Positions 17,470-38,906 of a DNA stretch of 38,906 nt are shown piece by piece. The number at the start of each line of letters is the position of its first letter. Within the stretch, counting starts at the first letter, position 1. The translations under genes were made by a program, and so were the position numbers. This stretch comes from Rhizaria sp. SCN 62-66 (lineage: Eukaryota), in the NCBI GenBank assembly GCA_001724265.1, contig MEDY01000352.1, positions 1 through 38,906 on the forward strand, read 5' to 3'. The notes under the pieces are model-generated. The model was not told where the DNA came from. It worked only from the letters and a program-made list of their open reading frames with translations, and ran no database searches.

Positions 17470-19285
17470 GTGAAGTGGGGCTTAACATATATTTTATTAT
17501 GATGGATGTGTTGTTCGCGAAACATTTGCGAACCAACAAGAGCGAGGACGAGGGACAACCACCAACAGGTGGTGGTTCAGTTGTTGTTGATGTTTGGCGG
17601 ACTATATGGTGTTGCTGGTCGTCTTTGCAGCGCCTATACTGAACATCAAAAGTCATTTTATGCACAACAACTCCTGCGAAGCAAAAGAAACTCTTAAATT
17701 AAAGCGAAGGAGCAACAGTCGTTACTCATACAACACAAACGATTTATTGTTCCGACTATTTGCACGTGTATATCTCTGAGAATGAAAATAATAATCATGA
17801 ATCCAAGAAATATAGCTTGTGATTTTTCCTAAACATATCTTATTTTTGTGCTCGTGAGATTAATGAGTGGCGTAAAGTGCCGGTAAAGAGGGGACAAGTC
17901 ATGGGTGCCATCCACGCTGGGCTGTTGGGCTTGATCGGCCAGCAGAGCGCGGCTTAACTTCCGCCTCGCTGGTCGGCTCAGAGCAAAAGTTTAGATTCGT
18001 CGCCGAGGTGGCTTGTGGGAAGCTTTGCTAGAAATAGTTTTTTGTGGAGTGTTATATTCACATTGGTGTTGGTGACATAGTGCTGCGGCTTTTTTTCCAG
18101 GCGCTTAGTACGGTGTGGAATCTCAACAATTTCCGCCGCTCCCAGACCCAACGCGAGTCGAACCAACGGTGGAGACAACCAGCCCGACGCTCGGGCGCGC
18201 CCGTCTCGGTTTGCTGACGCCGTGTGGAACACTTTTTAATCTTTTCAAAGAGACGGAGTACCGGTCTATCAAGCTGCGCGCGTCCCGAGCCTTGCTTAGA
18301 CGTCGTATGACCCGCTTGTATCTTTAGGCGGCACACAATCGGAGCCTGTTGCAAAGTCGGAATTAGGTGATCTGCCACCGGTCACCCTTGCACTCACACC
18401 CTTTATTTCACCCTTTACGCCACCCACGCAGCACTTCCTTTTCCTTTACATAGCAGGTTTGCGTTTAAAACGATTGTTACATACCTCTGGCGGCGTTTTC
18501 ACCCACTCCGTCATTCGCTCCCCACTTTCGCCCTCACCGTCCTTCCCCGTCAAAGCCACCGCTCGCCCGTGTGTGACTGACTGGGACACAGTTTTGACGT
18601 TGCCCGTGTACTCGGCGTGCTCAGCTTGCCAGTTTTTACCCTTTCCGTCTGCCAGAAGCGTGGATACCCGTCCCACCGTCTGCGTTCGTTCGGCGATCCT
18701 TCACGACTCCCGCTTTCCCCGCCGCACCGCTCCGCTGCTCTGTCAGTCGTTGCTGGTTGCGTCCCCTGCCCTGTCATCGGCCACAATAGCAGCTTCCACG
18801 ACTGCCGCGCGTGTCTTTGACGATCCCCACCCTTGCGCGTGCTGTTCTGTGCCTCTACAGTCTCAGCGCAGCTACTCTCGTCCTTTGAACTAACCAGAGT
18901 CCCCACCTCCTAGGAACTCCCGTGCGTTCTCCGCCTAACCCCTCGCGCGCACCCAGCTTTCCCCCGCATTCCTGCAGGAAGAGCCCGCATCGTGCCCGCC
19001 ACCGCGCCCGCCGCTCGCCGCTGCTTGTTTGGAACGCAGCCCGTGAGAGTTACCTCGCTGTTCGTTTCCCACACCACGCAGCCCAACTCACGCACCGTCT
19101 CCTCCCTGCGCCCGCGCCAGTCCTGTGCACTTAAACTGTTGTTGCTGTCGTCGTCGTACGTAGCCGCGCCGCGCTTAAGCCCCCCAACGCGCCCCCCACT
19201 TCGCCAGCAGCGCTAATCACATCACTAGCGTTTCCACCCGCACAGTAAACACACACACAGACAACACACTGACAGAGAGACACAG

Positions 19286-20872
19286 ATGTCATCCACGGCG
19301 TCCTCTTCGTCAGGCTCGTCGTCGGCGTCTTTGGCGGCGTCTGCCTCGACCGTTTCCAGCGCCTCCTCAGTGCTCTCGGCCGCGTCCACAGCGTCGACGG
19401 CGTCGTCCTCGTCCTCGGCGTCGTCGTCCGCGTCGTCGTCCGCGTCCACCATGCTCACCTCTGTCCCGGCGCCTCTCGCCACGGCCACGGCCGACGTCGT
19501 CGCCGTGCGGGGCGGCATCCCCATGTACGCGCCCCTCGGCCTCACCAAGGCCGACCTGCTCGCCTCTCTGCCGCCGCTGGCCGACGTCCCCCCCGCCCAG
19601 CGCGCCGACGCCTTCCTCCACAAGCTCCGGCTGGGCTCCCTGCTGTTTGAGTGGCCCGGCGAGGGCCAGGCCGACCCCGACGCCGCCGAGCGCGAGGCCA
19701 AGAACGCGCTCCTGCTCGACCTCGTCGACAGCATCGGTAAGTGCGATCTCCCTTTCACTGAGCCCATCCTCGCGGAGGTGATGCGTTTCGCGTCGACGAA
19801 CCTGTTCCGCGCGCTCGCGCCGCTGCCCGTCGAGTCCGCTGGCGGCGAGGGCGAGGAAGAGCCCATCCCGAAAGACCCTGCCTGGTCACACTTGCACATC
19901 GTGTACGAATTCTTCTTGCGTTTCATCGTCAACGCGCAGATCGATGCGCGCGTGCTCAAGAAGCACATCAACGGGCCATTTGTGCTGCGCCTGCTCGAGC
20001 TGTTTGACTCACAAGACGTGCGCGAGCGCGACTACCTCAAGACGCTGCTGCACCGCATCTACGCCAAGTTTATGTCGTTGCGTGCCTTTATCCGCAAGGC
20101 GATGAACCACGTCTTTTACCAGTTCATCTACGACTCGGAGCACTTCAACGGCGTCGGCGAGATGCTCGAGATCCTCGGCTCCATCATCAACGGCTTTGCG
20201 CTGCCGCTCAAGCAGGAGCACCGTAACTTCTTCACCCGTGTGCTGATGCCGATGCACAAGGTGCGGCCGCTCATGTCGTTCCACCAGCAGCTCACCTACT
20301 GCGTGACGCAGTTCGTCGAGAAGGATTCGACGCTCGCTGTGCCGCTCATCCACGGCATGCTGCGCTTTTGGCCCGCGCCGTGCTCGTCCAAGGAAGTCCT
20401 CTTTATCTCCGAGATCGAGGAGATCTTGGAGTTGACGCCCGTTGAGGAATTCCACAAGGTTGTGCACGTGCTGTTTCGTCAGATCGCTCGGTGTATCACG
20501 TCGGCACACTTTCAGGTCTCGGAGCGCGCGCTGTACATCTGGCAAAACAACTACGTGGGCACGCTTATCTCGGAGCACCGCGCAGTCATCCTGCCCCTCG
20601 TCTACTCGGCGCTGCGCGACAACGAAGAGCACTGGAACGAGACCGTGGCGTCCCTGTCGCGGTCAGTGCTGACGATTTTCTCCGAGCTCGACGCCGCGCT
20701 GCTCGCGCGGTGCGCGTCGGAGATGGAGGAGGAGCGCCGCCGCAAGGTCGTCAATGACGAGCGGCGCGGCAACGCCTGGCGCCAGATCGAGGCCGCGACT
20801 AAGGATATCGTGGCGAAATATCCCACAAAGCCCGCGCTCGAAGCGCCCTCGCTGCTCCCGCCCTGCATGTAA
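19286..20872 (+). CDS. PPP2R5: Protein phosphatase 2A regulatory subunit B' (B56)
   Basis: DPAWSHLHIVYEFFLRF, LLELFDSQDVRERDYLKTLLHRIYAKF, EMLEILGSIINGFALPLKQEH, HFQVSERAL, HWN. The N-terminal tail is Ser/Ala-rich, so the exact start codon is less certain. Confidence 0.96.
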   Translation: MSSTASSSSGSSSASLAASASTVSSASSVLSAASTASTASSSSSASSSASSSASTMLTSVPAPLATATADVVAVRGGIPMYAPLGLTKADLLASLPPLADVPPAQRADAFLHKLRLGSLLFEWPGEGQADPDAAEREAKNALLLDLVDSIGKCDLPFTEPILAEVMRFASTNLFRALAPLPVESAGGEGEEEPIPKDPAWSHLHIVYEFFLRFIVNAQIDARVLKKHINGPFVLRLLELFDSQDVRERDYLKTLLHRIYAKFMSLRAFIRKAMNHVFYQFIYDSEHFNGVGEMLEILGSIINGFALPLKQEHRNFFTRVLMPMHKVRPLMSFHQQLTYCVTQFVEKDSTLAVPLIHGMLRFWPAPCSSKEVLFISEIEEILELTPVEEFHKVVHVLFRQIARCITSAHFQVSERALYIWQNNYVGTLISEHRAVILPLVYSALRDNEEHWNETVASLSRSVLTIFSELDAALLARCASEMEEERRRKVVNDERRGNAWRQIEAATKDIVAKYPTKPALEAPSLLPPCM

Positions 20873-22045
20873 ACAGAACATGTGACATGTATCCCAATAA
20901 TGAGCACAACAATGTACTAACAACGCACTTGCTACTCCTGAATATACTGCGGATGCGAGTGCAGCATTCGTGCCAGTGTGATTGCCACTGCCTTGTCTGT
21001 GTTTGTGCTTGGGGTGGAGTTGAGAAAGACAACGCGTGTCGTGTGTTCCCGAGTGTGCTGCGAGCTGTGACCTGATTTAACTGCGATGGCGCACTTGGTA
21101 GCGGATCCGAGACGTGGACGTGGGAATTTACTTTATTACTACTACTGGAAAGTACCTCTGCGCTTCCCGCAGCAGAGGGAAATGTATTTTGACAAGAAAA
21201 GGAAATCATATGTTGTATTAGCTACACAAAGAAAAAGAAGTAACAATAACAAAATATATGTGTGTATGTGTTGTCCCCCGCCATGAAGGGAGGCTGCGAA
21301 AGATTCGTTTGTTGTAACGATATTTGTTTATTTTAGTATAATCTACCTGCTTAATGTTTTGTTTTTTGTTTTTTACTGTCCCGATATATTTTTAAAAAGT
21401 ACTCTTGCTCGTATTGTCGACGCATGTGAGCACCTCGACCGCTATGTCTGTCGAAAGTGATGTGAATTGATGAATCGAGATGGGGCAGAGAAGAACTTTT
21501 GTTGCGCCTTATCGGTCCTTAGGAGGACCACTGGTTGTTCTAATAACTAATAGAAATACAAAACTCTATACTTTTCAAGCACATCAACATACCCAAGTTT
21601 TTATTTCCTCGTCTTGAATCCTCTTATGCATATCCTCGTGCAAAGTGCCGAACGCAGTGTGGAGCAGCAGTCACTGCAGCAGACCCGACTGTGCGCACTT
21701 TTTGTGGTGCGGCCGGGGGACTGCTGGGCTGAGCCGAACTAGCGAGGCAGAGCTCGTCAGGATAAAACTTATCTGGAGCTTTGTAATTTAGTCACCTTTT
21801 ATAATTTGCGCTGTATTATTCTATATGTTGCTCGCACACGCGAGTCACTTTAGGAAGCCTGCCTAGCTGTTCCGAAAAGCGAACTCACCACACCCTTCGT
21901 CCAAGCCCTTCTTGTTCAGACGCTCTCGGTTTTGCGCGGCCCGCACTGTGGCGCTTTCTCACAAACCACACAACTCACATCTTCATTTCTTGCGCTCATT
22001 TGCTCCCCGACTTGCTTTTCAGAGTCTCGTTTACTCGCACTTCTC

Positions 22046-25000
22046 ATGCAGAACGAGGCGTCCGCGAGCGCTGCCCCGGCCCGGGGTCCTCGCACCGCAC
22101 AGATGCACCGCTGTGTCTACAAGCACTACGTGGACCAGCCCGTGGCGACTGCGGCTGCGACCCAGGCCACGCAGCTCCCGCAGCAGAGCGCCGCACAGGC
22201 CGTGCTGGCAAACTCGCGCATTGCGCGCATCCAGTTCGAGATGATGAAGGACACGGACATCACCAAGCTGTCGCACCTCGAGATCGTCCACCGGTCCTTT
22301 TACGAGGTCAACCGCCAGGAGCCTATGCCCTGGGGCGTGCTCGACCGCCGTCTTGGCACTTCCTCCAAGGAAGCCAACTGTCAGACGTGCCTCAAGCCTC
22401 TGGCCGACTGTATCGGTCACTTCGGCCACGTGACTCTTGACCTCCCAGTCTTCCACATCGGCTACGTCAAGGAGATCCAGCGCGTTCTCCAGGCCGTGTG
22501 CAAGCGCTGCTCGCGCATCCTGCTGCCCGAGTCGTTCCGCGAGTACTACCTCTCGCGCATGGCGACGGGCGACCGCCGCCACCGGTCCGCCGTGAACCGC
22601 GAGGAGATCACCGAGCTCACTAAGCGCGCCAAGCTCTGCTCGCACTGCGGCGCGCGCAACGGGCAGATCAAGAAGATGCCCGGCATGCTCAAGTTCATCC
22701 ATGACCTGCGCGAGAAGGAGACTAAGTCTGCGCGCGACGAGCGTGCGTCACGCGAGAACACGCTCAAGGAGGCCGCGCGGCTGCGGCGCAAGGCGCGTGC
22801 CCGTGGCGAGACGGTCGACGACGCGTGGTATGACGAGCAGCAGCATGTCGGCACGGTGCAGACGACGGAGCGCGTGACCAACTTCGGCTACGGCCCGCGC
22901 ACGGGCACGGTGGCGCCCGAGACGTGGCGCGACGCGTTCGTTGAGTCGTTTTCCACGGCCGTTAAGCACAACTCGGCCATCGGTGACTACATCGATAAGG
23001 CGCTGCTCGAGGTGTCGCCGCTGTACGCACTCAAGCTCTTTGCGCAGATTCCCGACGAGGACTGCTACCTGCTGAACCTGGACCCGCAGCTGGGCCGCCC
23101 GGAGGACATGATCGTCACGCACCTCATCGTGCCGCCCGTCTGCATCCGCCCTTCAGTCACCATGGGTCCCTCGGGCTCCAACGAGGACGACCTCACGGTC
23201 AAGCTGGGTGATATTATCTACATCAACTCGTTCATCCGCTCCTGCTTCCAGAAGGGCATGCCCACCTCGGTCATCGTCGAGAACTGGGACTTTCTGCAGC
23301 AGCAAGTCGCCATGCTGGTCAATTCCGATCTCCCGGGCTTCAACAAGGCCGCCATCGCGTCCAAGCCCATCCGCGCGCTCACACAGCGTCTCAAGGGCAA
23401 GCAGGGCCGTTTCCGCGGTAACCTCTCCGGCAAGCGCGTCGACTTCTCCTCGCGTACCGTCATTTCCCCCGATCCGAACCTGCGCATCGACGAAGTCGGC
23501 GTGCCCCAACGCATCGCCAAGATCCTCACGTTCCCCGAGCGCGTGTTCGCGCACAACATCGAGCAGCTGCGCCAGGCCATCATCAACGGGCCTGACGTGC
23601 ACCCCGGCGCCAACATCGTCGAGTTCCGCAACGGGATGAAGATCTTCCTTAAGTTCGCGGACCGGCACAAGATCGCCGCCATGGTTGGCGAGGGCGATAC
23701 GGTCGAGCGCCACTTGCGCAACGGCGATATCTGTCTCTTCAACCGCCAGCCGTCGCTGCACCGCATGTCGATCATGGCGCACCGTGCGCGCGTGCTGCGC
23801 TGGCGCACGTTCCGCTTTAACGAGTGCGTGTGCACGCCCTACAACGCCGATTTCGACGGTGATGAGATGAACCTGCACTTGCCGCAGACGATGGAGGCGC
23901 GCGCCGAGGCCGAGTCTCTGATGGGCGTGCTGCACAACCTCGTTACACCGCGTAACGGCGAGCCGCTGGTCGCTGCCACGCAAGATTTCATCACGTCTGC
24001 GTTTCTCATCACCAGCAAGGACCGGTTCTTTTCGCGCGCGAAGCTCTGCCACGTTGTGGCCGGCATGGGCGACGCCAACGAGACGGTGCTGCTGCCCGTG
24101 CCCGCGATCCTCAAGCCGCAGCAGCTGTGGACGGGCAAGCAGGCCTTTTCGCTCCTGCTCAAGCCCAACAACGACCCCGCGCTGCACTGGCCGCTGGTGA
24201 CTGTGGAGCTCAAGGCGCGCAACAACAAGAAGGCACACCCGCTGGACCCCGGAGACGGCTACGTTGTGCTGCGCAACTCGGAGCTCATTTGCGGCTCGAT
24301 CGACAAGGACGCGCTCGGCGGGTCTAAGAAGGGTATGTTCTACCAGCTCATCCGCGGGCCGCGCGGGCCGGAGACTGCGGCACGCTTTCTCAACAGGCTC
24401 GCGAAGTGCTCCTCGCGCTTCATCGGCTCACAGGGCTTCTCGATCGGCATCGACGATGTGACACCGTCGCTCAAGCTGCAGGGTCACAAGCGCGCGCTGG
24501 TCGAGACGGGCTACGAGAACTGCCAGGCCAACATCGCAAAGTACCACGCCGGCCAGCTCGCGCTGCGCCCCGGTTGCGATGAGCTCCAGACGCTCGAGTC
24601 GATGCTGCTGGGTGAGCTCTCGGCCATCCGTGAAGACGCAGGCTCGGCGTGCTTTAAGGAGCTCAACCTGCTGTACAACTCGCCCCTCATCATGGCCATC
24701 TCCGGCTCGAAGGGCTCCAAGATCAACATCTCACAGATGACTGCGTGCGTCGGCCAACAGGCCGTCAGCGGCTCGCGCATCCCAGAGGGCTTCCACCAGC
24801 GCACGCTGCCGCATTTCCCCAAGTTCTCGCGCGATCCCGAGGCCAAGGGCTTCGTGGAGAACTCGTTCTTCACGGGCCTCACCGCCACCGAGTTCTTCTT
24901 CCACACCATGGGTGGCCGCGAAGGTCTCGTCGATACCGCCGTCAAGACGGCCGAGACGGGCTACATGCAGCGCCGTCTCGTCAAGGCCATGGAGGACCTG

Positions 25001-27598
25001 TGCGTGCAGTACAACGGCTCGGTGCAGACGTCGGAACGCAATATCGTGCAGTTCCGCTACGGTGACGACGGCCTCGACCCCGTACTCATGGCTTACGGCG
25101 CCATGCCGGTCAACTTTCCGCTCTACTGGGAGCAGATCCGTGCCGCTGTCAACGCGCACACGCGCAACGTCGCCGACGGCACTGCCTTTAGCGCTGCGGC
25201 GGCCGCCGCCGCTGCCGCACCTGTCGCCCGCGCCGCCGCCGCTGCCGCGCCCGCCGCGTCGAACGCCAAGGGCAACCGCCGCGACAACAAGAAGGACAAG
25301 GCCTCCGCCGCCGCCGCCGCCTCTGCCGCCGCTGCCGCTGCCGCGGCCTCTGCTGCCTCTGCCGGCAGCGCTGACGGGTCCGACCCCAAGACGTTCGTGT
25401 CTGACCTGCTCAAGTCGCTGCTGACGACCGCAGGCGGGTACAAGCAACTCGGCGAGCTGACCGACTATGTCGACATCGCGGCGCAGCTGGCCGCCGCGCA
25501 GGCCGCCGAGCACGCGGCCGCCGCCAAGCCCGTGCTCGCCGCCGCCGCTGCGGTGTCTTCCGCGGGCGGCGTCACCGTCAAGCTCGAGCCCGGCTCCGCG
25601 GCGGCCGCCGTCGCCGCTGCCGCCGCCGCCGCGCCCGTGGCCGCGGGAGGCAGCACGGGCTGCGTGAGCGAGGCTGAGGTGGCCTCCGCGGCCGACACCG
25701 CGCGCGCCGTGACCGCGGACGACTTCGAGCCGCTGTCGCCCGCGCAGATCGCCAGCGCCGTGCGCGTGTTCCTCGAGTCGCCCTGGGTCGTGGGCAACTG
25801 CACCGGCAAGTTCCTCGAAGGTCTGGTCGAGTTCATGGACAGAGAAGTGCTGTCGATGTGCCAGCTGTACGACCACGTGGGACTATGGTACGCGCCGCCG
25901 CTCAAGCGCGACGGCACGCCTCTGGTCAAGGCCGAGACGCTGTCCCCCGACGACGCCGCCTCTGCGCATACCGGTGGCGCGGTGAGCAAGACGGCGCTGC
26001 CGCACGACTCGGCGCTCAGACTGGTGCGGCAGACGATGCCGGTACTCAAGTCGCACCTCAACATCTTCCTCAACGGCTGCCAGTTCAAGTACGCGCGGTC
26101 GTGCATTGAGCCCGGATCCACGGTCGGCGCTGTCGGTGCGCAGTCGATTGGTGAGCCGGCGACGCAGATGACCCTCAAGACGTTCCACTTCGCTGGTGTC
26201 GCGTCGATGAACATCACGCTTGGTGTGCCGCGTATTAAGGAGATTATCAACGCCAGCAAGAAGATCAACACGCCCATCATCACGGCGCCGCTCGAATGCA
26301 GCACCGACGTCAAGACGGGCCGCATCGTCAAGGGCCGCATCGAGACGACGCGACTGGGGCAGATCGCGGAGAAGATCGAGGCCGTGTTCCAGTCTGGCCA
26401 GGCCTTTATCCGCGTCGTGCTGGACCCTCGTGTGATCGAGAGTCTGCAGCTCAACATCACCATCAGCAAGGTTGTAACGGCAATTTCAACGGCCAAGAAG
26501 CTCAAGCTCAAGGAGTGCGTCAAGCCGGCGGGCCCCATGACACTTCACGTGACCGCGCCCCCTTCGACGCGCGGGTCGAACCCGATGCATGTGCTGCAGA
26601 ACCTCAAGCACGCCGTGGCCGAGATCGTCGTCGAGGGCATCCCGACCGTGTCGCGCGCCGTCATTAACGACGACGGCAGCGGCAAGTACCATCTCCTCGT
26701 CGAAGGCTACGACATGCGCTCCGTCATGGGCACGCTCGGCGTGCGCGGCCGCGAAGTGACGTCGAACCACATCATGGAAGTGTGGAAAGTGCTCGGTATC
26801 GAAGCCGCGCGCACGACCATTATGCGCGAGATTAACACGACGATGGAGTCGCACGGCCTTAACGTCGACCCGCGTCACGTGGCGCTGCTCGCCGACACCA
26901 TGACGTGCCGCGGTGAAGTGCTGGGTATCACGCGCTTCGGCATCGCGAAGATGAAGGAGTCGGTGCTCATGCTCGCTTCGTTCGAGAAGACCGCCGACCA
27001 CCTGTTCGAGGCTGCGCTGCGCGGCGCATGCGACGACATCAGCGGCGTCTCTGACTGCATCATCATGGGCGTGCCTATGCCCGTCGGCACCGGTCTCTTT
27101 AACCTCATCTCTAAGTCCCAGCCTTCATCGCTGCCGAACATCGAGGAGCACAACGCGGCCGCCAAGCGCCAGAGCAAGGCCGCTAAGGCCGGCAAGGGTG
27201 CCGCGTCCTCCTCGGCCGCTTCTGGTGTCGCCGCCGCCGCTGCCGCCGCGCGCGCGGGCGCCGGCGCCGCGATGAGCGACGGCGAGGACGAGGAGCGCAT
27301 CGACCTCAGCGCGCTCGAGGCCCTCTCTGCCTCGGCCTCTGCGCCGAGCGGCTCTCGTCCCGCCGCGCGTGCCAGCGCTGGCGCGGGCGCGGGTGCGGGT
27401 GCGTCTGACAAGCGGCAGTCGCTCGCGGGCGCGAAGCCGCTGACGGGCCCGCTGGCGCAGCTGCTGCCCGCACAAGCCTCGCCCGGCAACTCGGGCATCG
27501 TCGGCCGCGTCGTGGAGCGCATCAAGCCCGCGCGCAACGACCCGCTGGCGTCGCGCGCGCCGTTACTGAGCCACTTCTCGGCCGCCGCAACCGCTTGA
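22046..27598 (+). CDS. POLR3A: DNA-directed RNA polymerase III largest subunit (RPC1)
   Basis: Zn site CQTC...CIGHFGH, RLKGKQGRFRGNLSGKRVDFSSRTVISPDP, catalytic YNADFDGDEMN (NADFDGD at 23843-23863), trigger-loop TQMTLKTFHFAG, and the Pol III-type GEVLGITRFGIAKMKESVLMLASFEKT. There is no heptad CTD. The first in-frame ATG is at 22046. Confidence 0.96.
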   Translation: MQNEASASAAPARGPRTAQMHRCVYKHYVDQPVATAAATQATQLPQQSAAQAVLANSRIARIQFEMMKDTDITKLSHLEIVHRSFYEVNRQEPMPWGVLDRRLGTSSKEANCQTCLKPLADCIGHFGHVTLDLPVFHIGYVKEIQRVLQAVCKRCSRILLPESFREYYLSRMATGDRRHRSAVNREEITELTKRAKLCSHCGARNGQIKKMPGMLKFIHDLREKETKSARDERASRENTLKEAARLRRKARARGETVDDAWYDEQQHVGTVQTTERVTNFGYGPRTGTVAPETWRDAFVESFSTAVKHNSAIGDYIDKALLEVSPLYALKLFAQIPDEDCYLLNLDPQLGRPEDMIVTHLIVPPVCIRPSVTMGPSGSNEDDLTVKLGDIIYINSFIRSCFQKGMPTSVIVENWDFLQQQVAMLVNSDLPGFNKAAIASKPIRALTQRLKGKQGRFRGNLSGKRVDFSSRTVISPDPNLRIDEVGVPQRIAKILTFPERVFAHNIEQLRQAIINGPDVHPGANIVEFRNGMKIFLKFADRHKIAAMVGEGDTVERHLRNGDICLFNRQPSLHRMSIMAHRARVLRWRTFRFNECVCTPYNADFDGDEMNLHLPQTMEARAEAESLMGVLHNLVTPRNGEPLVAATQDFITSAFLITSKDRFFSRAKLCHVVAGMGDANETVLLPVPAILKPQQLWTGKQAFSLLLKPNNDPALHWPLVTVELKARNNKKAHPLDPGDGYVVLRNSELICGSIDKDALGGSKKGMFYQLIRGPRGPETAARFLNRLAKCSSRFIGSQGFSIGIDDVTPSLKLQGHKRALVETGYENCQANIAKYHAGQLALRPGCDELQTLESMLLGELSAIREDAGSACFKELNLLYNSPLIMAISGSKGSKINISQMTACVGQQAVSGSRIPEGFHQRTLPHFPKFSRDPEAKGFVENSFFTGLTATEFFFHTMGGREGLVDTAVKTAETGYMQRRLVKAMEDLCVQYNGSVQTSERNIVQFRYGDDGLDPVLMAYGAMPVNFPLYWEQIRAAVNAHTRNVADGTAFSAAAAAAAAAPVARAAAAAAPAASNAKGNRRDNKKDKASAAAAASAAAAAAAASAASAGSADGSDPKTFVSDLLKSLLTTAGGYKQLGELTDYVDIAAQLAAAQAAEHAAAAKPVLAAAAAVSSAGGVTVKLEPGSAAAAVAAAAAAAPVAAGGSTGCVSEAEVASAADTARAVTADDFEPLSPAQIASAVRVFLESPWVVGNCTGKFLEGLVEFMDREVLSMCQLYDHVGLWYAPPLKRDGTPLVKAETLSPDDAASAHTGGAVSKTALPHDSALRLVRQTMPVLKSHLNIFLNGCQFKYARSCIEPGSTVGAVGAQSIGEPATQMTLKTFHFAGVASMNITLGVPRIKEIINASKKINTPIITAPLECSTDVKTGRIVKGRIETTRLGQIAEKIEAVFQSGQAFIRVVLDPRVIESLQLNITISKVVTAISTAKKLKLKECVKPAGPMTLHVTAPPSTRGSNPMHVLQNLKHAVAEIVVEGIPTVSRAVINDDGSGKYHLLVEGYDMRSVMGTLGVRGREVTSNHIMEVWKVLGIEAARTTIMREINTTMESHGLNVDPRHVALLADTMTCRGEVLGITRFGIAKMKESVLMLASFEKTADHLFEAALRGACDDISGVSDCIIMGVPMPVGTGLFNLISKSQPSSLPNIEEHNAAAKRQSKAAKAGKGAASSSAASGVAAAAAAARAGAGAAMSDGEDEERIDLSALEALSASASAPSGSRPAARASAGAGAGAGASDKRQSLAGAKPLTGPLAQLLPAQASPGNSGIVGRVVERIKPARNDPLASRAPLLSHFSAAATA

Positions 27599-28805
27599 GC
27601 ACGAAGTGGCTGTGTTGAAACGTGCTGAGGATGTCCTAACAAACGAAACGAGAAAACAACATGCAAAAAAGTAACCACTTTTTTTAGGAAACACGTTTGA
27701 AAACTCAAGCAATAACAAACGACAAAACTCGAATAATCAATTAAAATGTACATGTACTGTACATACAATGTCAACCATCTGATACTAGTATGTGTGATAG
27801 CTTTGAACAATCGAAGAACATTTATTTTATCGACTAAGCTGGCCATTAGATGTTGTTTTAATACAATTTCGTAATTATTATTAATCTATGGAACATTTGC
27901 TGCAATTGATTACGTCATCATATTTTATGTGTACCGTTTTCTCTGTCAGTTGCTTATTCCACTTTGTGGCTGGCCCGCGCAATGATACATGTACGTTGCT
28001 CGTGATGAGTGTTTGACCCAGTGCTATCGTATTTATCAGTGTTTGGATTGTATTTATTTTTTGAATGATAAGCTTCTGATACCTCGAAATAATTAATAGC
28101 TTACCAATATTAGTAGGAATAAAACAAACATCAATGTTCAAGTGCATTTGCTGGTTGGTCCCCAATCACGTACAACACCATTTATTGTTTTATGTTGTAT
28201 TTTTGCAATTTCGAAGGTAGCGTACAATTTAAATAAGTATCACAATTCTTGTTTCATTAATGTTGTTATTCTTATCTGCAATTTATACCAGCAGGTTCTC
28301 ATCCGCTGTAGAGAGTCATTTTCGGTGCTCATTATTCTGACTAACTCGCTGCCTCGCGCGATGCCGCCATCTTCAACCGTCCCATGCCTCGAGAGGCGCT
28401 GTCGCTGGTCTGGTACCTGCTCTGGACACGACTGAAGACGCCCCAAACTCAAACAATAGCGGCAGGTCCGGACACAACAAACGCACAAACGTAAAAGAGG
28501 TTCGCATCCCATGGCATCAGTGCGGGCACCGATCTGCTCTCCGCGCTCGCCACACTGGCGCCGCTGTACACGCGCGCTCCGCTGCTCTTGGCCGCGCCGA
28601 CAATGTCGGTCGCCAACACGGCGACGGCGACGTCTGCGCTGCCCGCCGCCGCCGCAGTCTCTGCCGCGGCCGCCGCGACGTGACCACGCGTGCCGCCGCA
28701 CTGCCTGTCGCGCAAAAAGAAAGCACTGTGTCGCCAGTCTGCGGCAATCGTCGGGTGCACGTAGTGCAACTCGAAAAAAACACAACGCACCGAGAAAGTC
28801 GTGTT

Positions 28806-31800
28806 TTAATCACGAAGCTGGATGTGGAACACCGGCCTTTGCGAGCTAAACTTATTTGATTTGGAAGGCGTCATCTTAACCGTTAAATGAGGGGACGGAA
28901 AAATAACAACAACCTCAGGACGAACTTGCACATGAAAACCCGATCCATTGTTGTACACGGTCTTCCACCCTTGCTGAGTCACCTGTTCATTCAGCGCCGT
29001 GATCACCGCTGCTTCAATCGCATTAATAAGGCTCCACACGCCGGGAAGATCAAATTTGTGCGATTTACTGATTGTGGCTTGAATAAGAGAAATGCGAGGA
29101 CTGTTAAAAGGGCCGTTAGGAAACTCCACCAAGATCGTATCGAAGTTTGGAAAGTTGGGGGCGTCAGGATCGAAGCGCCAGGCCAAGGCATTAAACCTAG
29201 GGGCCGTAGCGACGTCCCGCTTCTGCGCTGCGTCGGAACGAATCTTAACAATCTGAACTGCAATACGATTCGCAAGAGCTTCGAGCGTGATACCAGCCGC
29301 AAAAGAAGTAACACATTGAGAAATCTCGCCCTCCGCCAAAGCGACGCGCACATGCGTCATGTCGAGTTTTAAGCCAGTGGGTTTGCCTCGGTAATCTAAA
29401 AGATCATACACCTTCTTGTCCTGGCGGGTAAGAAAACTATTCTCATACAGAAATCCGTAAGCAGATGAGGCTAGCTTAACCAGTGCAGAGTGCTGCATGC
29501 CGATTGTTCCCTTTGCGGCGGCGTGGCGAAGAAGCAAATCAAATGCCCCAGGGCTGGCCTCTTGAAAACCACATAAAATATGATTAAGTGTAGCAATTGG
29601 CGTAGTGAGAGTAGTCCTTAAACGTTTCCGAATGTCGTTGGAGTCGTGATTTTTCGGGTACTGCTTATACTTAGTGAGCCACTCATCAAGAGTCCAGACA
29701 CATGGAGGTTCGGTGTGAGCCCGCAGCACATTTGTGACAATAGCGTGGGAGAGATTCATCAAACCAGGCCCATTGTACAGCAAATTTGTCAACTCATCTG
29801 TGGTCTTCGCATCGTTTAACTGATCTAGAGCGTTTTTGTCCAGAGATCGAATCGCAGTCGAGAGGTATTTACGGGCGTCGAATTGACTTGCCTGGCCGTA
29901 CGCAGCTTGTAAAGCGGCACGAAAATTACCCTTAACCAACGTGACTACTTCATCAACCTTAGGCGAGTAAAACTCGTTCAGCAGTTTAAACCCCTGTTTA
30001 ATCTCTGCGTCTTCCCAGGCGTAAGACCACAAAGAAACAACACCAGGGTTCTTTCGGGCGGAAGTAAGCTTCGGAGAAATAGCGCTATAATGCTTGACAT
30101 TAGGAGATGTTGCAATAAGACTGGTTGCCTTAAAGCCATCATTAAACAAAGGCTCCGCGTCAGCCTCGTCAGGGTCAAACAGGTAGACGACGTACTTGTC
30201 ACGGAATAGCGCACCTTCGACGTCACTGATACTCATCGCCCGAACAGGGTTCTCGTGTTTCGCAGAGTAGCATAAGATTTGATGATTAGCTCGCCCAGAA
30301 TGACAAATTACATCCATGCCAAGCTCAAAACGTGCGATGTACCAGATCAGATTCAGCATAACAGACTTGCCTGTGCCAGGCGGGCCGCGCAGTAAAAACG
30401 TGGTTCCAATCCCCGGATCGCCTACGTTGAGCGCTTGCAGATGAGTTGTCAGGATATTGTAAATGCCATTGTGTGACTTGCGCAGCAGTAAGCGTTGCAT
30501 AGGCGCCTCGGTTTTAAGACCTTTGCCGGAAAAGGGAAAATATGCACCTTTAGGGGCGTCCAGAACGTGAAAGTATTCAAATGATGAGTCATACGACGCC
30601 TTAGATTGGAACAATTCAGAGTTAGCATCATCATCCCACAGGTTTAATGCATGATCAACATCTGTCTGACACTCTGTCACCACTCGTTCAAATTTCTTGC
30701 GATGCAGGTAGGCATCCGCAAACGCTAGCCGCCTGGTTAACTCCTCTGTCCCGGCCCCGATGTCAGTGTCAGTGCCACCTGAGCCGGGGGCTGAGGCCTC
30801 GGCGGCTGTGGCGACGGCCTGCGACGGCAACAGCGCGGTGCTCTTCGACCCAAGCTGCACCGGCAGAGCCAGTGAACTCGCCTGAGTCTGACGTGCAAGG
30901 ATTGTTCTGTAGGTTTGCTCCGTGATCGCGGCAAAGTACTTTGCTTCGTTGTAAGCTTGGGTGAGTTTTGCGATTTTGGCGGCAGCTCGTGAAGCCCGGG
31001 CTCCTGCACGTCAGGGTGCGAGAAAGAATAAAAGAGAACAATGTGAGGAAAAAGGACAGTAAAATTGATGAAAACGAGTATAACAAGTCAAGGACGAAGC
31101 AAAAAAGTGAAAATAAGCAGTGAGACGTGGATTTTGCGGTGACGTACGCCGAAGAACAGTCAATGACGCCGTGAGCTTTTCATTGGCCTTTGTCACTTGA
31201 GCGTCAGCATCTGCCTACACTTTTGAGGCTACTGCAAACTTAGTCTCGAGAAGCCTCAAGCTTTGTTCAACCTAGCTTTCATTTTCAGACAATTCAGGGC
31301 GTTTTGAGTCAACTTTCTGCACATCGATAACCGACTAGTAGAATCGCGCAACCGTATCATCGTGATAGAGTTGCTCAACCGTATCCGCCATGATTTCAAC
31401 TTGATCACCTTCAGTTGCAACGCACACAACAGCATCGTGATCAACCGCGTGATCTTTATCAACTTTTGTCACAGCTTCCTTCACCTTTTCCAGTTGATAT
31501 GCCTTCCAAGAAACATGGTTCGGTGTCAGCTTCAAAAAAGCTGCGTGAAGCTCCCTTCCGACTTGGTACTCGGCAAAGTTCGCATTAGCGAGACGAACCT
31601 TGGCGAGCTTAACAACAGCCTCGTGGTTGATAATATCAGTCACCATAAGTTGTTCCTCGGCATTCTTAAGGCGGAATGTCACGTTTGCGCAATTCTCATT
31701 GTTAGCCGGAAGAGTCATCGTGAGATCGTGATCATCCTGAGCACACTTTAACTCAGTTTTTGCCTTCTTCACACCGCGGTCAGCCTTAACGAGATCACAA

Positions 31801-32387
31801 CACATTTTGAGATTGAAAATAGCTACCCGCAACTTGGTATCGGCGTCGCCACGCAAAACGAGAAGTTGCTCGAGGTTAGCTTCAGCAGCTGCCACCTCTT
31901 CGTACCTTTTGTATAATTGAGCTTCAGCCTCGATCTGACCATCACTCTTCGTTGGCGGTGTATACTCGGCGAGGAACTGCTCCAGAGGCGGTTGACTAAG
32001 ATCAAACTCTGCTCGAATCCACTGCTCGTAACAATCCTTCGCAGCCCTGACTTGGTCCAATGTAGTCTGAGCAGTTATCACGTTAGCGTGAGTCCGGAAT
32101 CGTTCGTCGCCGGAAGAAATCGCATCGCCAGAAGCAGCATTTAAGAGATCTAGAACATCCTTATTCTCAAGTTCATCCGGATCAATAAGCAGCGCGCTGA
32201 TGTTGCTGCCGTCTAGAGAGAGAAAGAGCGAGAACGGGAGAAGATGGAGAGAAAGAGAGGGGGAGGGAGAGAGAGGGCGAGGGAGAGAGAGAGGGAGAGA
32301 GCGGCAATAAGAAGGTTATATGACAAAGACGAACGCTCAATTGAAGGCAAGCTTACCTGTAAATTGGAACATGAACTGTAACAACAT
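28806..32387 (-). CDS. Crinkler/RHS-type effector-like protein: helical N-terminal region + P-loop NTPase + restriction-endonuclease-fold domain; exons ~32387-32357 (tentative), 32212-31148, 31003-28806; three in-frame TAG
   Basis: Walker A GPPGTGKS (30386-30363), Walker B-like VVYLFDP, the CR/RHS-type IATSP....Y motif, and C-terminal P..PNFPNFD...LIQATISKSH typical of CR-REase domains. Introns 32356-32213 (CAG|GTAAG...TAG) and 31147-31004 (C|GTACGT...CTGAC..CAG|GA) keep the frame. The 5' end is uncertain. Confidence 0.75.
32215..32300. repeat. GA/CT-rich microsatellite-like tract (polypyrimidine tract of a minus-strand intron)
   Basis: AGAGAGAGAAAGAGCGAG...GGGAGAGAGAGAGGGAGAGA abuts the acceptor at 32213-32214. 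Confidence 0.7.
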
Positions 32388-33466
32388 GTAGTGACATTGT
32401 GAAGGTGCGTACCGTTGGCGCTGCGGGATTGTACGTTCAGTTTGGTGAACAGAGCAGAGAGATCCGCATATGACTGATGTAAGTTTTGAAGCTGCTGCGC
32501 GGAGCCGCTCTGAGGAGTGGAGTAGCGCAAAGCGCGATGGGTCTAATCTTGAAGTTGCTCATTGAGGGCATGTGAGGACGATGGCGACACTCTAACAAGT
32601 TCAGTAGAAGCTGCGGATGTAGTGTTCGCAGCGTGAGCGTTATTGTTAATGCCCTTATTTGCGTTGCGGGCTTCGAGGCTTTGGCGCATGGTGGCGCTGG
32701 AAGCAGATTGGTCGTCCATGCAAGACAAAGAGAAGACTGATGGGTCGATGCAGGAGAGTGTTGAATGTACAAATCGAGATGTGAATCAAATTTCTCTTCT
32801 GTAGCGCGACAAATCAAACATTATAAGGCCAGTAACAAGAGGAATTGTGAAAATGTGAGGATGCCCGAGAAGAACGAGGGGACTCATTGCATTGCCAGTT
32901 GTGAATAGAGGAGGCTCAAGCGGAGAAGCTCTAAATGACTTTACGTAGAAAACAATAAGTCAGTCATGTACCATTACATAACGCAGCAGAGGAAGATGAT
33001 GTCAACATCGGTGTCCTATCACAGCGGTAGGTCTTATGGATCAGATTGACTGAATGCTTCTCGAAAGTCTGCGATGTTCGAAGTTAAGCCGTCAAGTCAG
33101 GACAGGCGGATTTTTCGGAACCAAAATGGCTAGAGTCTTTATTGAGCTTAAGAACAGCCGAGTGTAATAAATAACGAGTTATACTGGTCTCTGATGACTT
33201 TGTAACGGGAGCAAACCACGCATGTACATTAGCCGTTCGATTGGACGGATCGCGCGACACTGTAGGGCTGCGAAGGGACATTGTGGCCTGGCCTGGGTTC
33301 TTTACACTGGACAACAAGTCAGGGACACGGAGAGACACAACAAGAGAGAGCCGTGGTAAGATACGTGCTACGTGAAGACATTACGATGTGAAGCGCGAGA
33401 GTATAGAGATGCCACAAGCCACCACGAGACGACGTGGCGTTGAGGAAATGAAAAGCTCAGTTAAGA

Positions 33467-33554
33467 GTGTTCAGTCGCGTCAGGAAAGTTTTTAATCATT
33501 CATCCGTGTTTAACAGACACGGATCAGGAACTTGGATGTTGGATCATCATTATA
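33467..33554 (-). ncRNA. Box C/D snoRNA family A, copy 2 (snR48/U60-like guide)
   Basis: Box C ATGATGA at 33550-33544, D' CTGA, internal TCCGTGT/ACACGGA hairpin, box D CTGA at 33474-33471. It differs from copy 1 at one position, whereas the flanks are unrelated. It lies in intron 33621-~33268. Confidence 0.8.
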
Positions 33555-33813
33555 AGATATTTCGTCGAGTCATCTTCGCAGCAAAAGGTATGGTTGCGGG
33601 TGCGTGAAACATGAAACATACCTGAAACAAAGCACGCTGCTACAGTCATGAGAGACACAACATGCGAACGCCAGGTGCCGCCATGCAAAGAGAGATAGCG
33701 GGCGTAGTGACTGTGCCAATTAACAAAATGAGAACGAGCCAGTCAAGAAGTGAGTGGATAACCGACAGTAGAAGGAGATGCAACGAGCACAACAGAGAGC
33801 TTGTTTTGTTTGC

Positions 33814-33919
33814 GATGTTGAATCAGAAAATCGGTTAGAAAAAAAGTGTAATCAAGCACGCTTTTGAATTCACGCACATATCAGCAACACGGACCAATAA
33901 TTTTCATCATTTAAACATC
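33814..33919 (-). ncRNA. Box C/D snoRNA family B, copy 2 (U18/snR18-like)
   Basis: Box C at 33910-33904. The guide TTGGTCCGTGTT sits just before D' CTGA (33884-33881) and is complementary to the conserved LSU rRNA AACACGGACCAA. Box D at 33826-33823; terminal stem GATGTT/AACATC. Confidence 0.85.
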
Positions 33920-34126
33920 ACAACTAAAGAGCGAAGGAAAACAGTAGTCGTAGACATACCTTATGAACACGGAACTACGCGTCGACACCACACATCGAGA
34001 GAAGAGCACAAGAGCTAAACAAGCGCAAATATGACGCGACAGAAAAGAAAGCAATCGCAGAGACAATGATGTGAGCGCAGGCTTGTGTTAACGTTGGTGC
34101 GAGAGAAGCAAGTGACTAAAAGTACC

Positions 34127-34214
34127 ATGTTCAGTCGCGTCAGGAAAGTTTATAATCATTCATCCGTGTTTAACAGACACGGATCAGGAACTTGGATGTT
34201 GGATCATCATTATA
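34127..34214 (-). ncRNA. Box C/D snoRNA family A, copy 1 (snR48/U60-like guide)
   Basis: Box C at 34210-34204, D' CTGA at 34187-34184, box D at 34134-34131. The D guide AACTTTCCTGACGC is near-complementary to the conserved LSU GUGUCAGAAAAGUU. It lies in intron 34270-33975. Confidence 0.8.
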
Positions 34215-34285
34215 GTGTAAATGTGGTAGAAAGGACGGAAACGCATGATGTGTGCGTGTGTGTTACATACCCAGCAGCTGGATTC

Positions 34286-34859
34286 TCACTTCTTCTTGAC
34301 AACAACAACCTTGGTGTTGCTGGCAGACTCGTAGACGGAGTTGGGAGCCTTGCGGGTGAAGGAGAACTCACCAAACTGCGAGGCCAGCCAACACGGTGGA
34401 AAGCGACAAAAGAATAAAGCGATTGAGATGGTGAGTGACATGTAGTGAATCCGAAGTTGCCAGCAAACAAGCGGGTTTAGGTTTTGGGTGGTGGGTTGTT
34501 AAGGTAGTCAGAAGGTAGGTTTAAAATAAGTGTAATCAAGCACGCTTTTGAATTCACGCACATATCATCAACACGGACCAATAATTATCATCATGTGTAA
34601 CATTCGAAAAAGATCGTAGTTTCATAGGAGGCGATATACATACCTTAAAGCCGACGTGCTGCTCGGTAACTTCGAGCGGCTCGTACTTCTTTCCGTTGTG
34701 GACGGCGAAGCGGATGCCGATGAACTCGGGGAGGATCATTGACGCGCGATTGGTGATGTTGATGGGCGCCTTCTGGGGCTCATTCTTGCGAACCATGGCG
34801 CGCACGACACGCACAATCGATGGGTGGCAGAAGGGGCCCTTCCAAATCGAGCGAACCAT
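34286..34859 (-). CDS. rps19: Nuclear-encoded mitochondrial ribosomal protein uS19m, 101 aa; exons 34859-34644 and 34375-34286
   Basis: MVRSIWKGPF...RASMILPEFIGIRFAVHNGK...HVGFK|FGEFSFTRK is the bacterial/mitochondrial S19 signature. Phase-0 intron AAG|GTATGT...CGCAG|TTT; stop TGA. There is also a 5'-UTR acceptor (CTAAC..CAG at 34865-34864). Confidence 0.92.
34504..34598 (-). ncRNA. Box C/D snoRNA family B, copy 1 (U18/snR18-like)
   Basis: Box C at 34594-34588, the same TTGGTCCGTGTT guide followed by a degenerate D' (ATGA), and box D CTGA at 34511-34508. It lies inside the coding intron of rps19. Confidence 0.8.
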
Positions 34860-35396
34860 CTTTCTGTAGGGTTAGAATCAAATCGGGGCGAACAAAAAGG
34901 GTTCCAGTGAGCACGATATACGGCACAGTCAGACATATAATAAGCAGGTACAATAGATTACAAAGTCAAGTATCTCTGCAAGAGACGAAACACGCTATAC
35001 AATGTACTCCACACCCTGTGTGCAGGGCGCAAGATAGGCCCTCGATGTCGTCTCTCAGCCCACTGCTCGCGGTCCAACTCTAGACTCGGCCGCCTAAGGG
35101 CACTTACGACCCACAGTCACCAGTCTGGTCGTCTGCCAGAGACAAACTGACCGACCGACCGACCAACTCAACGAGAGGCAGTGGAGCAGAGGACTAAGGA
35201 GGCAGCCTTGGAATTCCGTTATGATACTTGCTGTCGGCGTGTTGATATATAATTTCGTTGTATTTTTTAATGATCATGCATTAATCAAGTAGTGGCTCTG
35301 CTTGGTGGTTTATCGGAGTCTTGCGCTGTTCTGAGTCGATTTTGTGCTCCTTGCTCACCCTTGCTCTCGTCTCTTCCTTTTCGCTCTTTGCAGACC

Positions 35397-36557
35397 ATGT
35401 CCAAGGGTGTGTTTGCTCTCTTGCTCGTCGCCATCGCCTGCGCGTCTGGTGCTACGTTCGAGGTACGTGCTAATCTTGTCCTGCTTCCTCTTCCCGTCAT
35501 CTTCCGTCCCATGTCTTGCTTTTCATCCCTCCACCCCATCACCTCACCCCTGCTCTTTGCTTCTCTACTCTCTGCTTCCTTTGCTCCTTGCTTTGTTGTT
35601 GCGTAGAATGAGGTGAACATTCGCAACGACCCCTACCTTCAGCGCGTGGTAGAGGAGGCCGTTGAGATGGGCGAGAATTCGATTCTCGACCTCGCGATGC
35701 GCGACACGGCCACCGCCCACCTCGAGGCTCCCCACGAGATCGCTTCGTCTTTGCTCGCCGTCTCGAGCGAGATTCTCGGCTCCCCCGTCCCGCGCGCCCT
35801 CCGCGGCGTGCCCCGCCCTTCTGCAGCCAAGGCCGCCGCCCCCGCGACGCAGGGCGTGTCGTTCGTGTCTGTCGACGAGTACGCCGAGTTCGAGGCCCTG
35901 CTGGGCTCGAGCGAGGAGGAGCGCCTCATCGCGCGCAAGAAGGCCGAGCTGGCCGCCGACGCCGCCGAGAACGCCGACCTGCTGAACCAGTTCGAGGACC
36001 TTTCGGCCACGGTCGACCGCTTCCAGGGTGAGCTGGCCCGCGAGGAGTCGATGTCGTTCGCCGACGCCTCCGTCTCCGCCGAGGAGGCCCTCGAGGCCGA
36101 GTCCGAGGCCGAGGCCGAGTCCGAGGCCGACGCCGAGGTGCAGCAGGAGTTTGAGGCCGACATCGAGGCCGAGCTGGACGCCGACGCCGAGTTCGACCTC
36201 ACGGCCGACGTCGATGACCGCATTGTGGCCCGCGCCGCGCGCGACGCCGCGCGCAAGACGGCCGCCGCCGTGCAGGCCGAGATCGAGGCCGAGTACGACC
36301 TCACCGCGTTCCTCGAGCTCGATGCCTCCGTCTCCGCGGGCGCCGACTCTGGCGCCGCCGCACTGACCGCCGCGCTGGCGGACCTGGCCGCGCCCGCGAT
36401 GTAGAGTGAGGCGCTGGAGCCCACACTGTCGGAGGAGGCCGCCGCCGAGGCCGAGGGGCACGACCTGCCCACGTTGTCGTTCCTGCTGACCGAGGAGGAG
36501 CTCACGTCGCAGCTCCACGCGCTGCAGAAGGACTTTGCCAACACCAACGCCAACTAA
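35397..36557 (+). CDS. Secreted acidic Glu/Asp/Ala-rich protein; exons 35397-35462 and 35607-36557; in-frame TAG at 36402-36404
   Basis: Signal peptide MSKGVFALLLVAIACASGA on exon 1 and a phase-0 intron GTACGT...TAG (35463-35606). GC3-rich coding pattern and amino-acid composition persist for 50 codons past the TAG up to TAA 36555-36557. It ends at 36404 if TAG is a stop. Confidence 0.8.
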
Positions 36558-38268: not shown

Positions 38269-38906
38269 CTTACAATACCAGATGTCCTGGGATTTGTCCA
38301 GGGCTCTCAAAACGATCTCTCGATGATCACCCAAAGGAGGCCCAGCCAAGCCAGCCCCACTTAGGGAGTGACTGTGAGCAAGGACTAAAATTACATTTCT
38401 TTTTTCGACCGGCGATCACTCTCTAAACTTCGTTAGTGGTGGGCCCATTGATTTCATCTGTTATCCAACGAATTCATTGTTTATTACATATTATTTGAGT
38501 TTGAAACTCTGATAAATTACTTAATCTATGCAGCTGGCTGAAGGCTCCCATGAGCAGGTTAATCTTTCCTTGCTCTATTATGAGGGTATAGAGAGCCTTA
38601 GTGAGCACCCACGATGGAGGCACTTATTCACTACAACTGATAAACACGATAACATTTGGCAATGCTATTAATATGCACTTATATCTTATTCTTCATTGCT
38701 TTTGGCTGCTCTGTCACGAGCTCTCGCTGACAACTTGCACAGCAAGACAAATGTTGAGCGCGCATAAGACGGTGCAATCAAGAGACAATAGACTTAGGCC
38801 AAGATATGATAACCCCTATGTAGCGTCAACTAAAAAACGCGATTTCGCGCTTTTTTTGCGACTTTGGCGCACTTTCGTAGAAGTTATCAAACTACGTGGT
38901 TTATTT

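Follow-up and report, generated by a model that had tools for sequence, protein, structure and literature searches.

Results

In-frame TAG codons interrupt two genes of the window

The window analysed here is the whole of contig MEDY01000352.1 of Rhizaria sp. SCN 62-66 (38,906 nt; 38.9 kb), DNA of an uncultured eukaryote that is contained in bioreactor and wastewater runs of several studies. Two of its genes are the main subject of this work: gene 1, on the minus strand, which encodes a P-loop NTPase, and gene 2, on the plus strand, which encodes a predicted acidic secreted protein (Table 1). A first-pass annotation, made from the letters of the window alone, had reported four TAG codons within these genes (31337-31335, 31274-31272 and 31217-31215 on the minus strand and 36402-36404 on the plus strand) and had proposed that UAG is a sense codon in this organism, with UAA and UGA still acting as stops. 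Each of the four lies in the frame of a long open reading frame (ORF), and except within the two introns the frames of both genes are free of TAA and TGA. A fifth in-frame TAG, absent from the earlier list, was found in the upstream exon of gene 1 (32543-32545, minus). All 11 genes of the window, genes 1 and 2 included, terminate in a codon other than TAG (TGA in six, TAA in five).

To this sequence we compared DNA contigs from two other studies (X2 and X4), cDNA contigs (X5) and polyA metatranscriptome contigs (X8). The RNA evidence thus consists of assembled contigs, in which minority variants may be hidden. The TAGs were unchanged in the independent DNA contigs, and for gene 2 the RNA contigs agreed, showing that they are not consensus errors. 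The gene 1 cluster was spanned by X4 record 11 (30680-32376), without a single other letter, and by X2 record 3 (30053-33554), with two other letters, at 31566 and 32375. The gene 2 TAG was covered, again with no other letters, by X4 record 14, X2 record 6, X5 record 23 and X8 record 30. In a model of random one-step nonsense mutation, TAG is expected to make up 0.46 of the new stops in gene 1 and 0.95 of those in gene 2. That all five breaks of the window are TAG is therefore only mildly unusual (P ~0.04), and the evidential weight comes from the additional loci described below.

The gene 2 TAG interrupts a conserved, expressed coding sequence

The sole database relative of gene 2, besides that relative's cluster mates, is the orthologue P0011, which is 61% identical and covers 98% of the query. 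P0011 begins with MSKGVFALFIVAVAAASAAM, the same N-terminus as that of gene 2, without an intron there, and it ends two residues before the gene 2 TAA. Both P0011 and its cluster mates, P0165 and P0166, continue past the position of the TAG, where P0011 has Glu. Among the 50 residues that follow the TAG, 47 could be aligned and were ~79% identical, compared to 61% overall, making this the best-conserved part of gene 2. The GC content at third codon positions (GC3) was 0.91 upstream of the TAG and 0.94 between it and the TAA, beyond which it fell to about 0.5. Since the orthologue continues through the site, the tail is conserved, GC3 is kept and the RNA is spliced, the TAG lies within a coding sequence that is conserved and expressed.

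Gene 1 carries four TAGs upstream of a conserved NTPase

Gene 1 comprises ~1,187 codons, with four TAG and no TAA or TGA, and has a GC3 of ~0.5, like its surroundings. X5 record 21, a cDNA contig, aligned to 32413-32751 and broke off exactly at 32413; its sole difference from the window was at 32707. In the bin 31747-32123 the X5 depth is 1.69, or 6.7 x 95/377, a value that is explained only if the other 184 letters of this record lie at 32029-32212. This indicates that the 200-nt intron 1 was spliced out and that the UAG of exon 0 was left unedited. In exon 1, frame 0 had a codon score of 75.2 over the 291 codons ahead of the first TAG, and the three TAGs fall within 41 codons. A database search with exon 1 returned the window's own ORF, P0012, as the sole match, and its three TAGs can thus be aligned to nothing. 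The predicted intron 2 has a donor that matches those of three RNA-supported introns, and the predicted proteins P0002 and P0003 begin inside the homologous intron ('GARAP'); the X5 and X8 contigs span neither this intron nor the TAG cluster. One X8 polyA-RNA contig follows the intron 2 sequence as far as 31121, beyond which come 255 unrelated letters; a paralogue transcript, an unspliced form or a chimera could each account for it. We also considered an intron that would remove the TAG cluster. This was rejected: there is no upstream donor of the GTAYG type, the stretch is purine-rich and coding-like, and splicing from the GT at 31335 would introduce another TAG.

The 734 codons of exon 2 follow in frame. 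They include a conserved FHVLDAP..FPFSGKG motif, and nine homologues at 32-48% identity share invariant columns with them. Between the last TAG and FHVLDAP there is no in-frame ATG, and the first Met beyond the motif aligns with V, I or H in the homologues. The standard code therefore cannot yield a gene 1 protein that includes FHVLDAP. As to the family, a Pfam match to Crinkler (PF20147) or RHSP (PF07999) was not obtained for gene 1, the Pfam search giving just a sub-threshold AAA_16. An Atlas feature search with gene 1 listed Crinkler/RHS clusters at 0.91-0.97, a lead only, without confirmation by Pfam. The FHVLDAP motif resembles HVLVxxP.

Further contigs of the organism are linked by a DDE_1 transposon

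Further contigs were fetched with a 25-mer tag from the high-copy repeat at the end of the window. The tag matched 20 metagenome contigs (L001-L020, 54.9 kb) and contig L021; L002 has the sequence of L001 and was dropped. GC3-rich genes on these contigs have the same codon usage as the window. The repeat is the end of a DNA transposon that can be assigned to the pogo-like DDE_1 family: PF03184 was matched at 31.0 and 23.7 bits (cut-off 22), the element is multi-copy and its ends are inverted, with the 25-mer occurring inverted ~3.3 kb apart in L007 and L011. In the window, the depth of the transposon end was 222-297, compared to ~6-7 for the flanks.

Several further observations concern this element and the contigs that carry it. 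Both ends of the window (97-263 and 38809-38906) lie inside copies of the transposon. The copies are 98-99% identical, and the family looks recently active. GC3-rich ORFs on L003 (1583-1915, minus) and L020 run directly into transposon ends and look like coding-sequence insertions or insertion polymorphisms. On L006, an ORF at 2-660 (plus) with YTK..D-type repeats, which by eye recall tail-fibre-like proteins, is cut by a transposon insertion and has one in-frame TAG. L021 (NZ_MEDS01000044.1) is a 6.5-kb eukaryote contig with Q/N-rich coiled-coil genes and a transposon end, binned in a bacterial metagenome-assembled genome titled Comamonas sp. SCN 65-56; a search of that genome revealed no eukaryote-like contig besides L021. 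A scan of viral contigs gave no match.

Transposases and a gene 1 paralogue carry in-frame TAGs opposite GAG

The transposase of one element, TE-b, is encoded by a 106-codon exon 1 and a DDE exon of ~686 codons, separated by a 155-nt intron that starts with GTACGC. All four copies (L006, L007, L008 and L011b; 99.7-100% nucleotide identity) have TAG as codon 98 of exon 1. A second element, TE-a, lies on L011, adjoins one TE-b-family copy and is 48% identical to TE-b; in each element a GTACG donor lies at offset 318 and the acceptor leads in frame into the DDE exon. At the exon 1 site TE-b reads TCA TAG CAA and TE-a TCT GAG CAG, the peptides being RCLTS#QSAWFANL (# for TAG) and RTLTSEQRHWLADL, respectively. 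The reverse was observed in the DDE exon, where TE-a has GAG TAG GCC, with 522 open codons downstream, and TE-b has GAT GAG GCC. L018 carries a paralogue of gene 1 with five in-frame TAGs, all 5' of the NTPase domain, which follows in frame. One of the five lies in an otherwise perfect 21-nt tandem repeat (GCG GAG CTC AAA GAT GCT AAG), of which one unit reads GCG TAG CTC, and the other four lie upstream. TAGs flanked on either side by sequence in which frame 0 had the best score were also found in L012 (two), L020 (two), L015 (two) and on the plus strand of L006 (one). A Pfam search gave nothing for exons 0 and 1 of gene 1, gene 2, L012, L020 or exon 1 of the transposases.

In total, 19 TAGs were found in nine genes of the window and L contigs, ~14 of them outside the window. 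No common context was apparent among the 19: the preceding base was T in six, G in six, C in four and A in three, and the +4 base was C in six, A in five, G in five and T in three. At the four homology-anchored sites (gene 2, TE-b, TE-a and L018), the codon or residue opposite TAG was in every case GAG or Glu; the remaining 15 TAGs lack an alignable homologue. Under the one-step nonsense model, using the codons of each gene itself, the probability that all four alignable TAGs descend from GAG is 0.004-0.007. Gln and Leu, the residues that the first-pass annotation saw as fitting the contexts, find no support at these sites.

These alignments bear on RNA editing, which that annotation had left open in the form of UAG-to-UIG changes and which might act as UAG to UGG by A-to-I or as U to C giving CAG. 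Editing would account for breaks that are specific to TAG, and in filamentous ascomycetes A-to-I editing of mRNA in the sexual stage does correct premature stops, the resemblance being that intact genes there are broken by UAG alone. The case differs here in that the RNA contigs retained TAG unedited (X8 record 30, from polyA RNA, X5 record 23 and the spliced cDNA of X5 record 21), the homologues have Glu at the sites rather than Trp or Gln, and the apparent lack of TAG terminators would be left unexplained. We therefore regard editing as very improbable.

Breaks in homology-anchored genes are all TAG, and the terminators tallied are TAA and TGA

Gene 1, gene 2, the L018 paralogue, TE-a and TE-b, the five genes anchored by homology, contain 12 breaks, all of them TAG, with no TAA, TGA or frameshift. 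The probability of this outcome is ~8e-4, or ~9e-3 without the sites of the first-pass annotation. In addition to the genes of the window, all ten further genes whose ends could be assigned terminate in TAA or TGA (on L001, L003, L005, L009, L012, L014, L017 and L021, and in TE-a and TE-b), a tally that covers ~100 kb. For the 13 homology-anchored ends the absence of TAG has a probability of 0.02-0.06, assuming a TAG share of 20-25%. In a symmetric scan for stops with a coding score above 10 bits on both sides, five TAG, no TAA and no TGA were found, two of the five TAGs being artefacts, one at an intron acceptor and the other in an antisense frame. An all-frame symmetric control was dominated by off-frame TGA and was uninformative.

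Under the standard code, the TAGs would be premature stops in young pseudogenes, in non-autonomous transposon copies or in tolerated truncations; the gene 2 protein would end 50 residues early, and the NTPases would be dead or internally started. The kinds of gene involved, which are considered below, suit this explanation, and so does the mutational path. GAG becomes TAG in one step, and no codon is a more frequent precursor in gene 2 (P(TAG) 0.95, P(E|TAG) 0.60). Decay, however, predicts TAA, TGA and frameshifts among the breaks, no preference for GAG, no burst of a TAG-bearing transposon, and TAG among the terminators. What was found was 12 of 12 breaks by TAG with 734, 522 and 273 codons open downstream, a gene 1 without an in-frame ATG between its last TAG and FHVLDAP and with no conserved Met next, and a TE-b that multiplied into many near-identical copies with the TAG in place. 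The tail of gene 2 is its best-conserved part, no anchored gene has a terminal TAG, and the agreement of all four sites with GAG would arise by chance at about 0.005. Collectively, these results lead us to judge that UAG is probably translated, and we consider decay under the standard code, the main rival, unlikely, while giving it appreciable weight.

TAG is absent from 14 GC3-rich genes

Several results weigh against translation of UAG. Fourteen GC3-rich genes, including ABCA, RPC1, SHMT, B56 and CD36, contain no TAG in 9,650 codons, with 455 GAG, compared to 18 TAG and 201 GAG in the 5,061 codons of the carriers. The first-pass annotation had expected usage to be low, and these counts make the case more strongly than it was stated there. 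All carriers are prone to decay, being transposases, members of a multi-copy Crinkler/RHS-like NTPase family, or orphan and low-complexity proteins; both this and the absence from GC3-rich genes are what premature stops in pseudogenes would produce. The TAGs of gene 1 and L018 all lie 5' of the conserved domain, which is poorly explained by either hypothesis. L015 encodes a homologue of Saf4/Yju2, with the best Yju2 matches in a sponge, zoopagomycetes, Plasmodiophora and a bivalve; neither these matches nor an Atlas search with SHMT point to a lineage. Its Pfam match lies wholly before the first TAG, as a pseudogene or truncation would allow, and translation may truly end there. Most members of the family are longer (257-490 aa vs 233), and the segment after the TAG gave a weak hhalign match to the family profile (E 0.089). 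The ORF at 447-731 of L016 ends in TAG, a possible terminator.

Other such points concern methods. Several of the TAG genes on L contigs were found from frames bounded by TAA or TGA, a procedure blind to genes broken by those codons. With looser settings, the scan was less one-sided: windows of 40 at 8 bits gave five TAG, three TAA and one TGA, windows of 30 at 6 bits gave 10, four and two, and windows of 60 at 12 bits gave four, two and three. TAG usually makes up 20-30% of terminators, and the share assumed above is taken from this general range rather than computed. Finally, ARAGORN found no tRNA genes, and hence no tRNA(CUA), in the window and the 20 L contigs, which is also in line with a standard code, and an eRF1 gene was not seen in the window or the L contigs.

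Other features of the window

The coordinates of all features are collected in Table 1. The genes identified by Pfam and the LSm-like and uS19-like genes have a GC3 of 0.75-0.91. Introns are few in the window; RNA joints support three, of 144, 268 and 318 nt, all starting with GTACGT or GTATGT. An Rfam search of the window gave no matches.

Table 1. Features of the 38,906-nt window, with genes 1 and 2 first
Feature	Position	Strand	Evidence or remark
Gene 1 exon 0	32413..32719	minus	ATG at 32719; phase 1 end, then GTACGC donor; codon score best in frame 0
In-frame TAG, codon 59 of exon 0	32543..32545	minus	unchanged in spliced cDNA X5 record 21
Gene 1 intron 1, 200 nt, GTACGC...CTCTAG, CT-rich	32213..32412	minus	absent from X5 record 21, as deduced from depth
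Gene 1 exon 1, orphan helix-rich N-terminal region	31148..32212	minus	sequence, codon score
In-frame TAG (FY#SV), exon 1	31335..31337	minus	sequence
In-frame TAG (ES#VE), exon 1	31272..31274	minus	sequence
In-frame TAG (KV#AD), exon 1	31215..31217	minus	sequence
Gene 1 intron 2 (predicted), 144 nt, GTACGT...GTGCAG, phase 1, frame kept	31004..31147	minus	sequence reading
Gene 1 exon 2: FHVLDAP motif, P-loop NTPase (GPPGTGKS), C-terminal domain	28806..31003	minus	stop TAA 28806-28808
Gene 2 exon 1, signal-peptide-like MSKGVFALLLVAIACASGATFE, first 22 codons	35397..35462	plus	ATG 35397
Gene 2 intron, 144 nt, GTACGT..GTAG	35463..35606	plus	joint 35460>35605 (cut +2) in X5 and polyA RNA X8
Gene 2 exon 2, acidic secreted protein (predicted)	35607..36557	plus	stop TAA 36555-36557
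In-frame TAG aligned with orthologue Glu	36402..36404	plus	DNA and RNA contigs, alignment
End of ~3.3-kb DDE_1 DNA transposon	38809..38906		97-98 nt match element ends in L004, L006, L007, L012 at 100% identity
ABCA transporter	826-6600, further exons to 7609		Pfam
LSm-like gene	about 9193-8669	minus	read by eye
Ankyrin/WW protein	10191-13001		Pfam
HAD hydrolase	15486-14467	minus	Pfam
SHMT	15949-17469		Pfam
PP2A B56	19229-20872		Pfam
RPC1	21854-27598		Pfam
uS19-like gene	34871-34286	minus	read by eye; RNA joint confirms intron

The stretch 28000-34000, which contains gene 1, is a block of ~47-49% GC flanked by genes of 60-69% GC. The transposons and L012 have the same low-GC composition, a possible sign of young or mobile DNA. 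Two pairs of direct repeats, 33468-33554/34128-34214 and 33839-33910/34523-34594, are 96-99% identical and 660-684 nt apart; they represent a local duplication that overlaps the intron of the uS19-like gene. Gene 2 (35397-36557, plus) converges with a neighbour at 38220-36985 (minus), and both encode very acidic, D/E/A-rich proteins with signal-peptide-like N-termini. BLASTP revealed no significant similarity between the two, so paralogy is not detectable by this comparison. Repeats in both genes attract many unrelated contigs in all runs.

Discussion

From what is read directly, that is, TAGs that are real, frames that continue beyond them, homologues that have GAG at the alignable sites, and homology-anchored genes that do not end in TAG, we infer that UAG is probably translated in this organism, most likely as Glu, and that UAA and UGA stop translation. 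The proposal of the first-pass annotation that UAG is sense, with the other two codons as stops, has thus gained an orthologue that reads through gene 2, ~14 further TAGs and the lack of any homology-anchored gene ending in TAG, which strengthen it without proving it. The low usage of UAG suggests that decoding is costly or incomplete.

A weakly terminating UAG deserves separate mention. UAG could formally remain a stop, with near-cognate tRNAs or an altered eRF1 giving substantial readthrough in the absence of a dedicated tRNA, so that genes of weak expression would tolerate UAG in frame. Such a situation predicts much of what was observed, namely breaks by TAG only, avoidance of TAG in GC3-rich genes and the apparent absence of TAG terminators. 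However, with four or five UAGs per mRNA, as in gene 1 and L018, a modest readthrough would be multiplied to almost nothing, and programmed readthrough is poorly matched by up to five TAGs per gene with no common +4 or -1 context. When near-cognate tRNAs read through UAG, the residue inserted is usually Gln, Tyr, Lys or Trp, a set that does not include the aligned residue, Glu. We therefore hold weak termination to be improbable.

Translation of UAG as Glu could have a simple basis. A single base change in the anticodon of a tRNA-Glu, from CUC to CUA, would enable it to read UAG, and the resulting Glu-tRNA(CUA) would probably still be competing with eRF1. Changes from GAG to TAG would then be near-synonymous, and TAGs would accumulate by drift in genes that are weakly expressed, evolve fast or are mobile, while being purged from highly expressed, GC3-rich ones. 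Tentatively, the organism may be a eukaryote midway through the capture of a stop codon, in which UAG has been lost as a terminator, is too costly for highly expressed genes and serves as a synonym of GAG elsewhere, in transposons, the Crinkler/RHS-like NTPase family and secreted proteins that evolve fast; we offer this as a possible reading, short of a probable one.

Codes in which UAG alone is reassigned are known from the rhizarian exLh (Leu) and from Iotanema spirale (Gln), with UAA and UGA as stops (PMC5304391). As in these, UAG here would be a sense codon and UAA and UGA the stops, and the organism is again a eukaryote outside the ciliates that is known from sequence data only. The organism differs in that the residue appears to be Glu and in that usage is very low, with none in conserved genes. 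In phyllopharyngean ciliates, UAG encodes Leu or Gln, UAA is the preferred stop, and suppressor tRNAs are present (PMC11687900). They share with our case the decoupling of UAG from UAA and the discovery through mining of metagenome assemblies, whereas the GC-rich 39-kb multi-gene contig with spliceosomal introns studied here is, in our judgement, unlike a ciliate macronucleus. UAG usage in those ciliates, as in the known UAG reassignments, is widespread (PMC11687900), which counts against a sense UAG that is as rare as in the present genes. Further codes that affect UAG only assign it to Gln in Protocruzia, Hartmannula and Trochilia and to Ser in Scotinosphaera (PMC11687900).

Glu itself has been recruited to stop codons elsewhere. 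In an uncultured ciliate UAA encodes Lys, UAG encodes Glu and UGA is the sole stop (PMC10553269, PMC11687900). The assignment of UAG to Glu would be shared, and the difference is that here UAA ends five of the 11 genes of the window. UAR encodes Glu in peritrich ciliates (PMC11687900) and, together with UGA as Trp, in Blastocrithidia nonstop (PMC12153298). There, as probably here, stops were captured by Glu, both UAA and UAG in those organisms and UAG alone in this one. A full-text literature search, in which supplementary files were outside the scope and which is no proof of absence, found no code with UAG as Glu that keeps both UAA and UGA as stops.

Nuclear codes that treat UAG differently from UAA are few. 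If the present reading is true, UAG as Glu with UAA and UGA as stops would be a new variant outside ciliates; the passages of PMC11687900 that list reassignments of UAG to Glu without the same reassignment of UAA give it just alongside UAA as Lys. One practical consequence is that the genes of this organism are split or truncated by gene callers that assume the standard code; pieces of them are already separate database entries (P0012, P0013 and P0014). Should the organism be midway through the capture of UAG, it would offer a living case of the ambiguous-intermediate stage of codon reassignment. Its uneven usage of UAG, in transposons and young genes and not in conserved genes or terminators, would, if confirmed, give access to the onset of a reassignment, which is usually just modelled.

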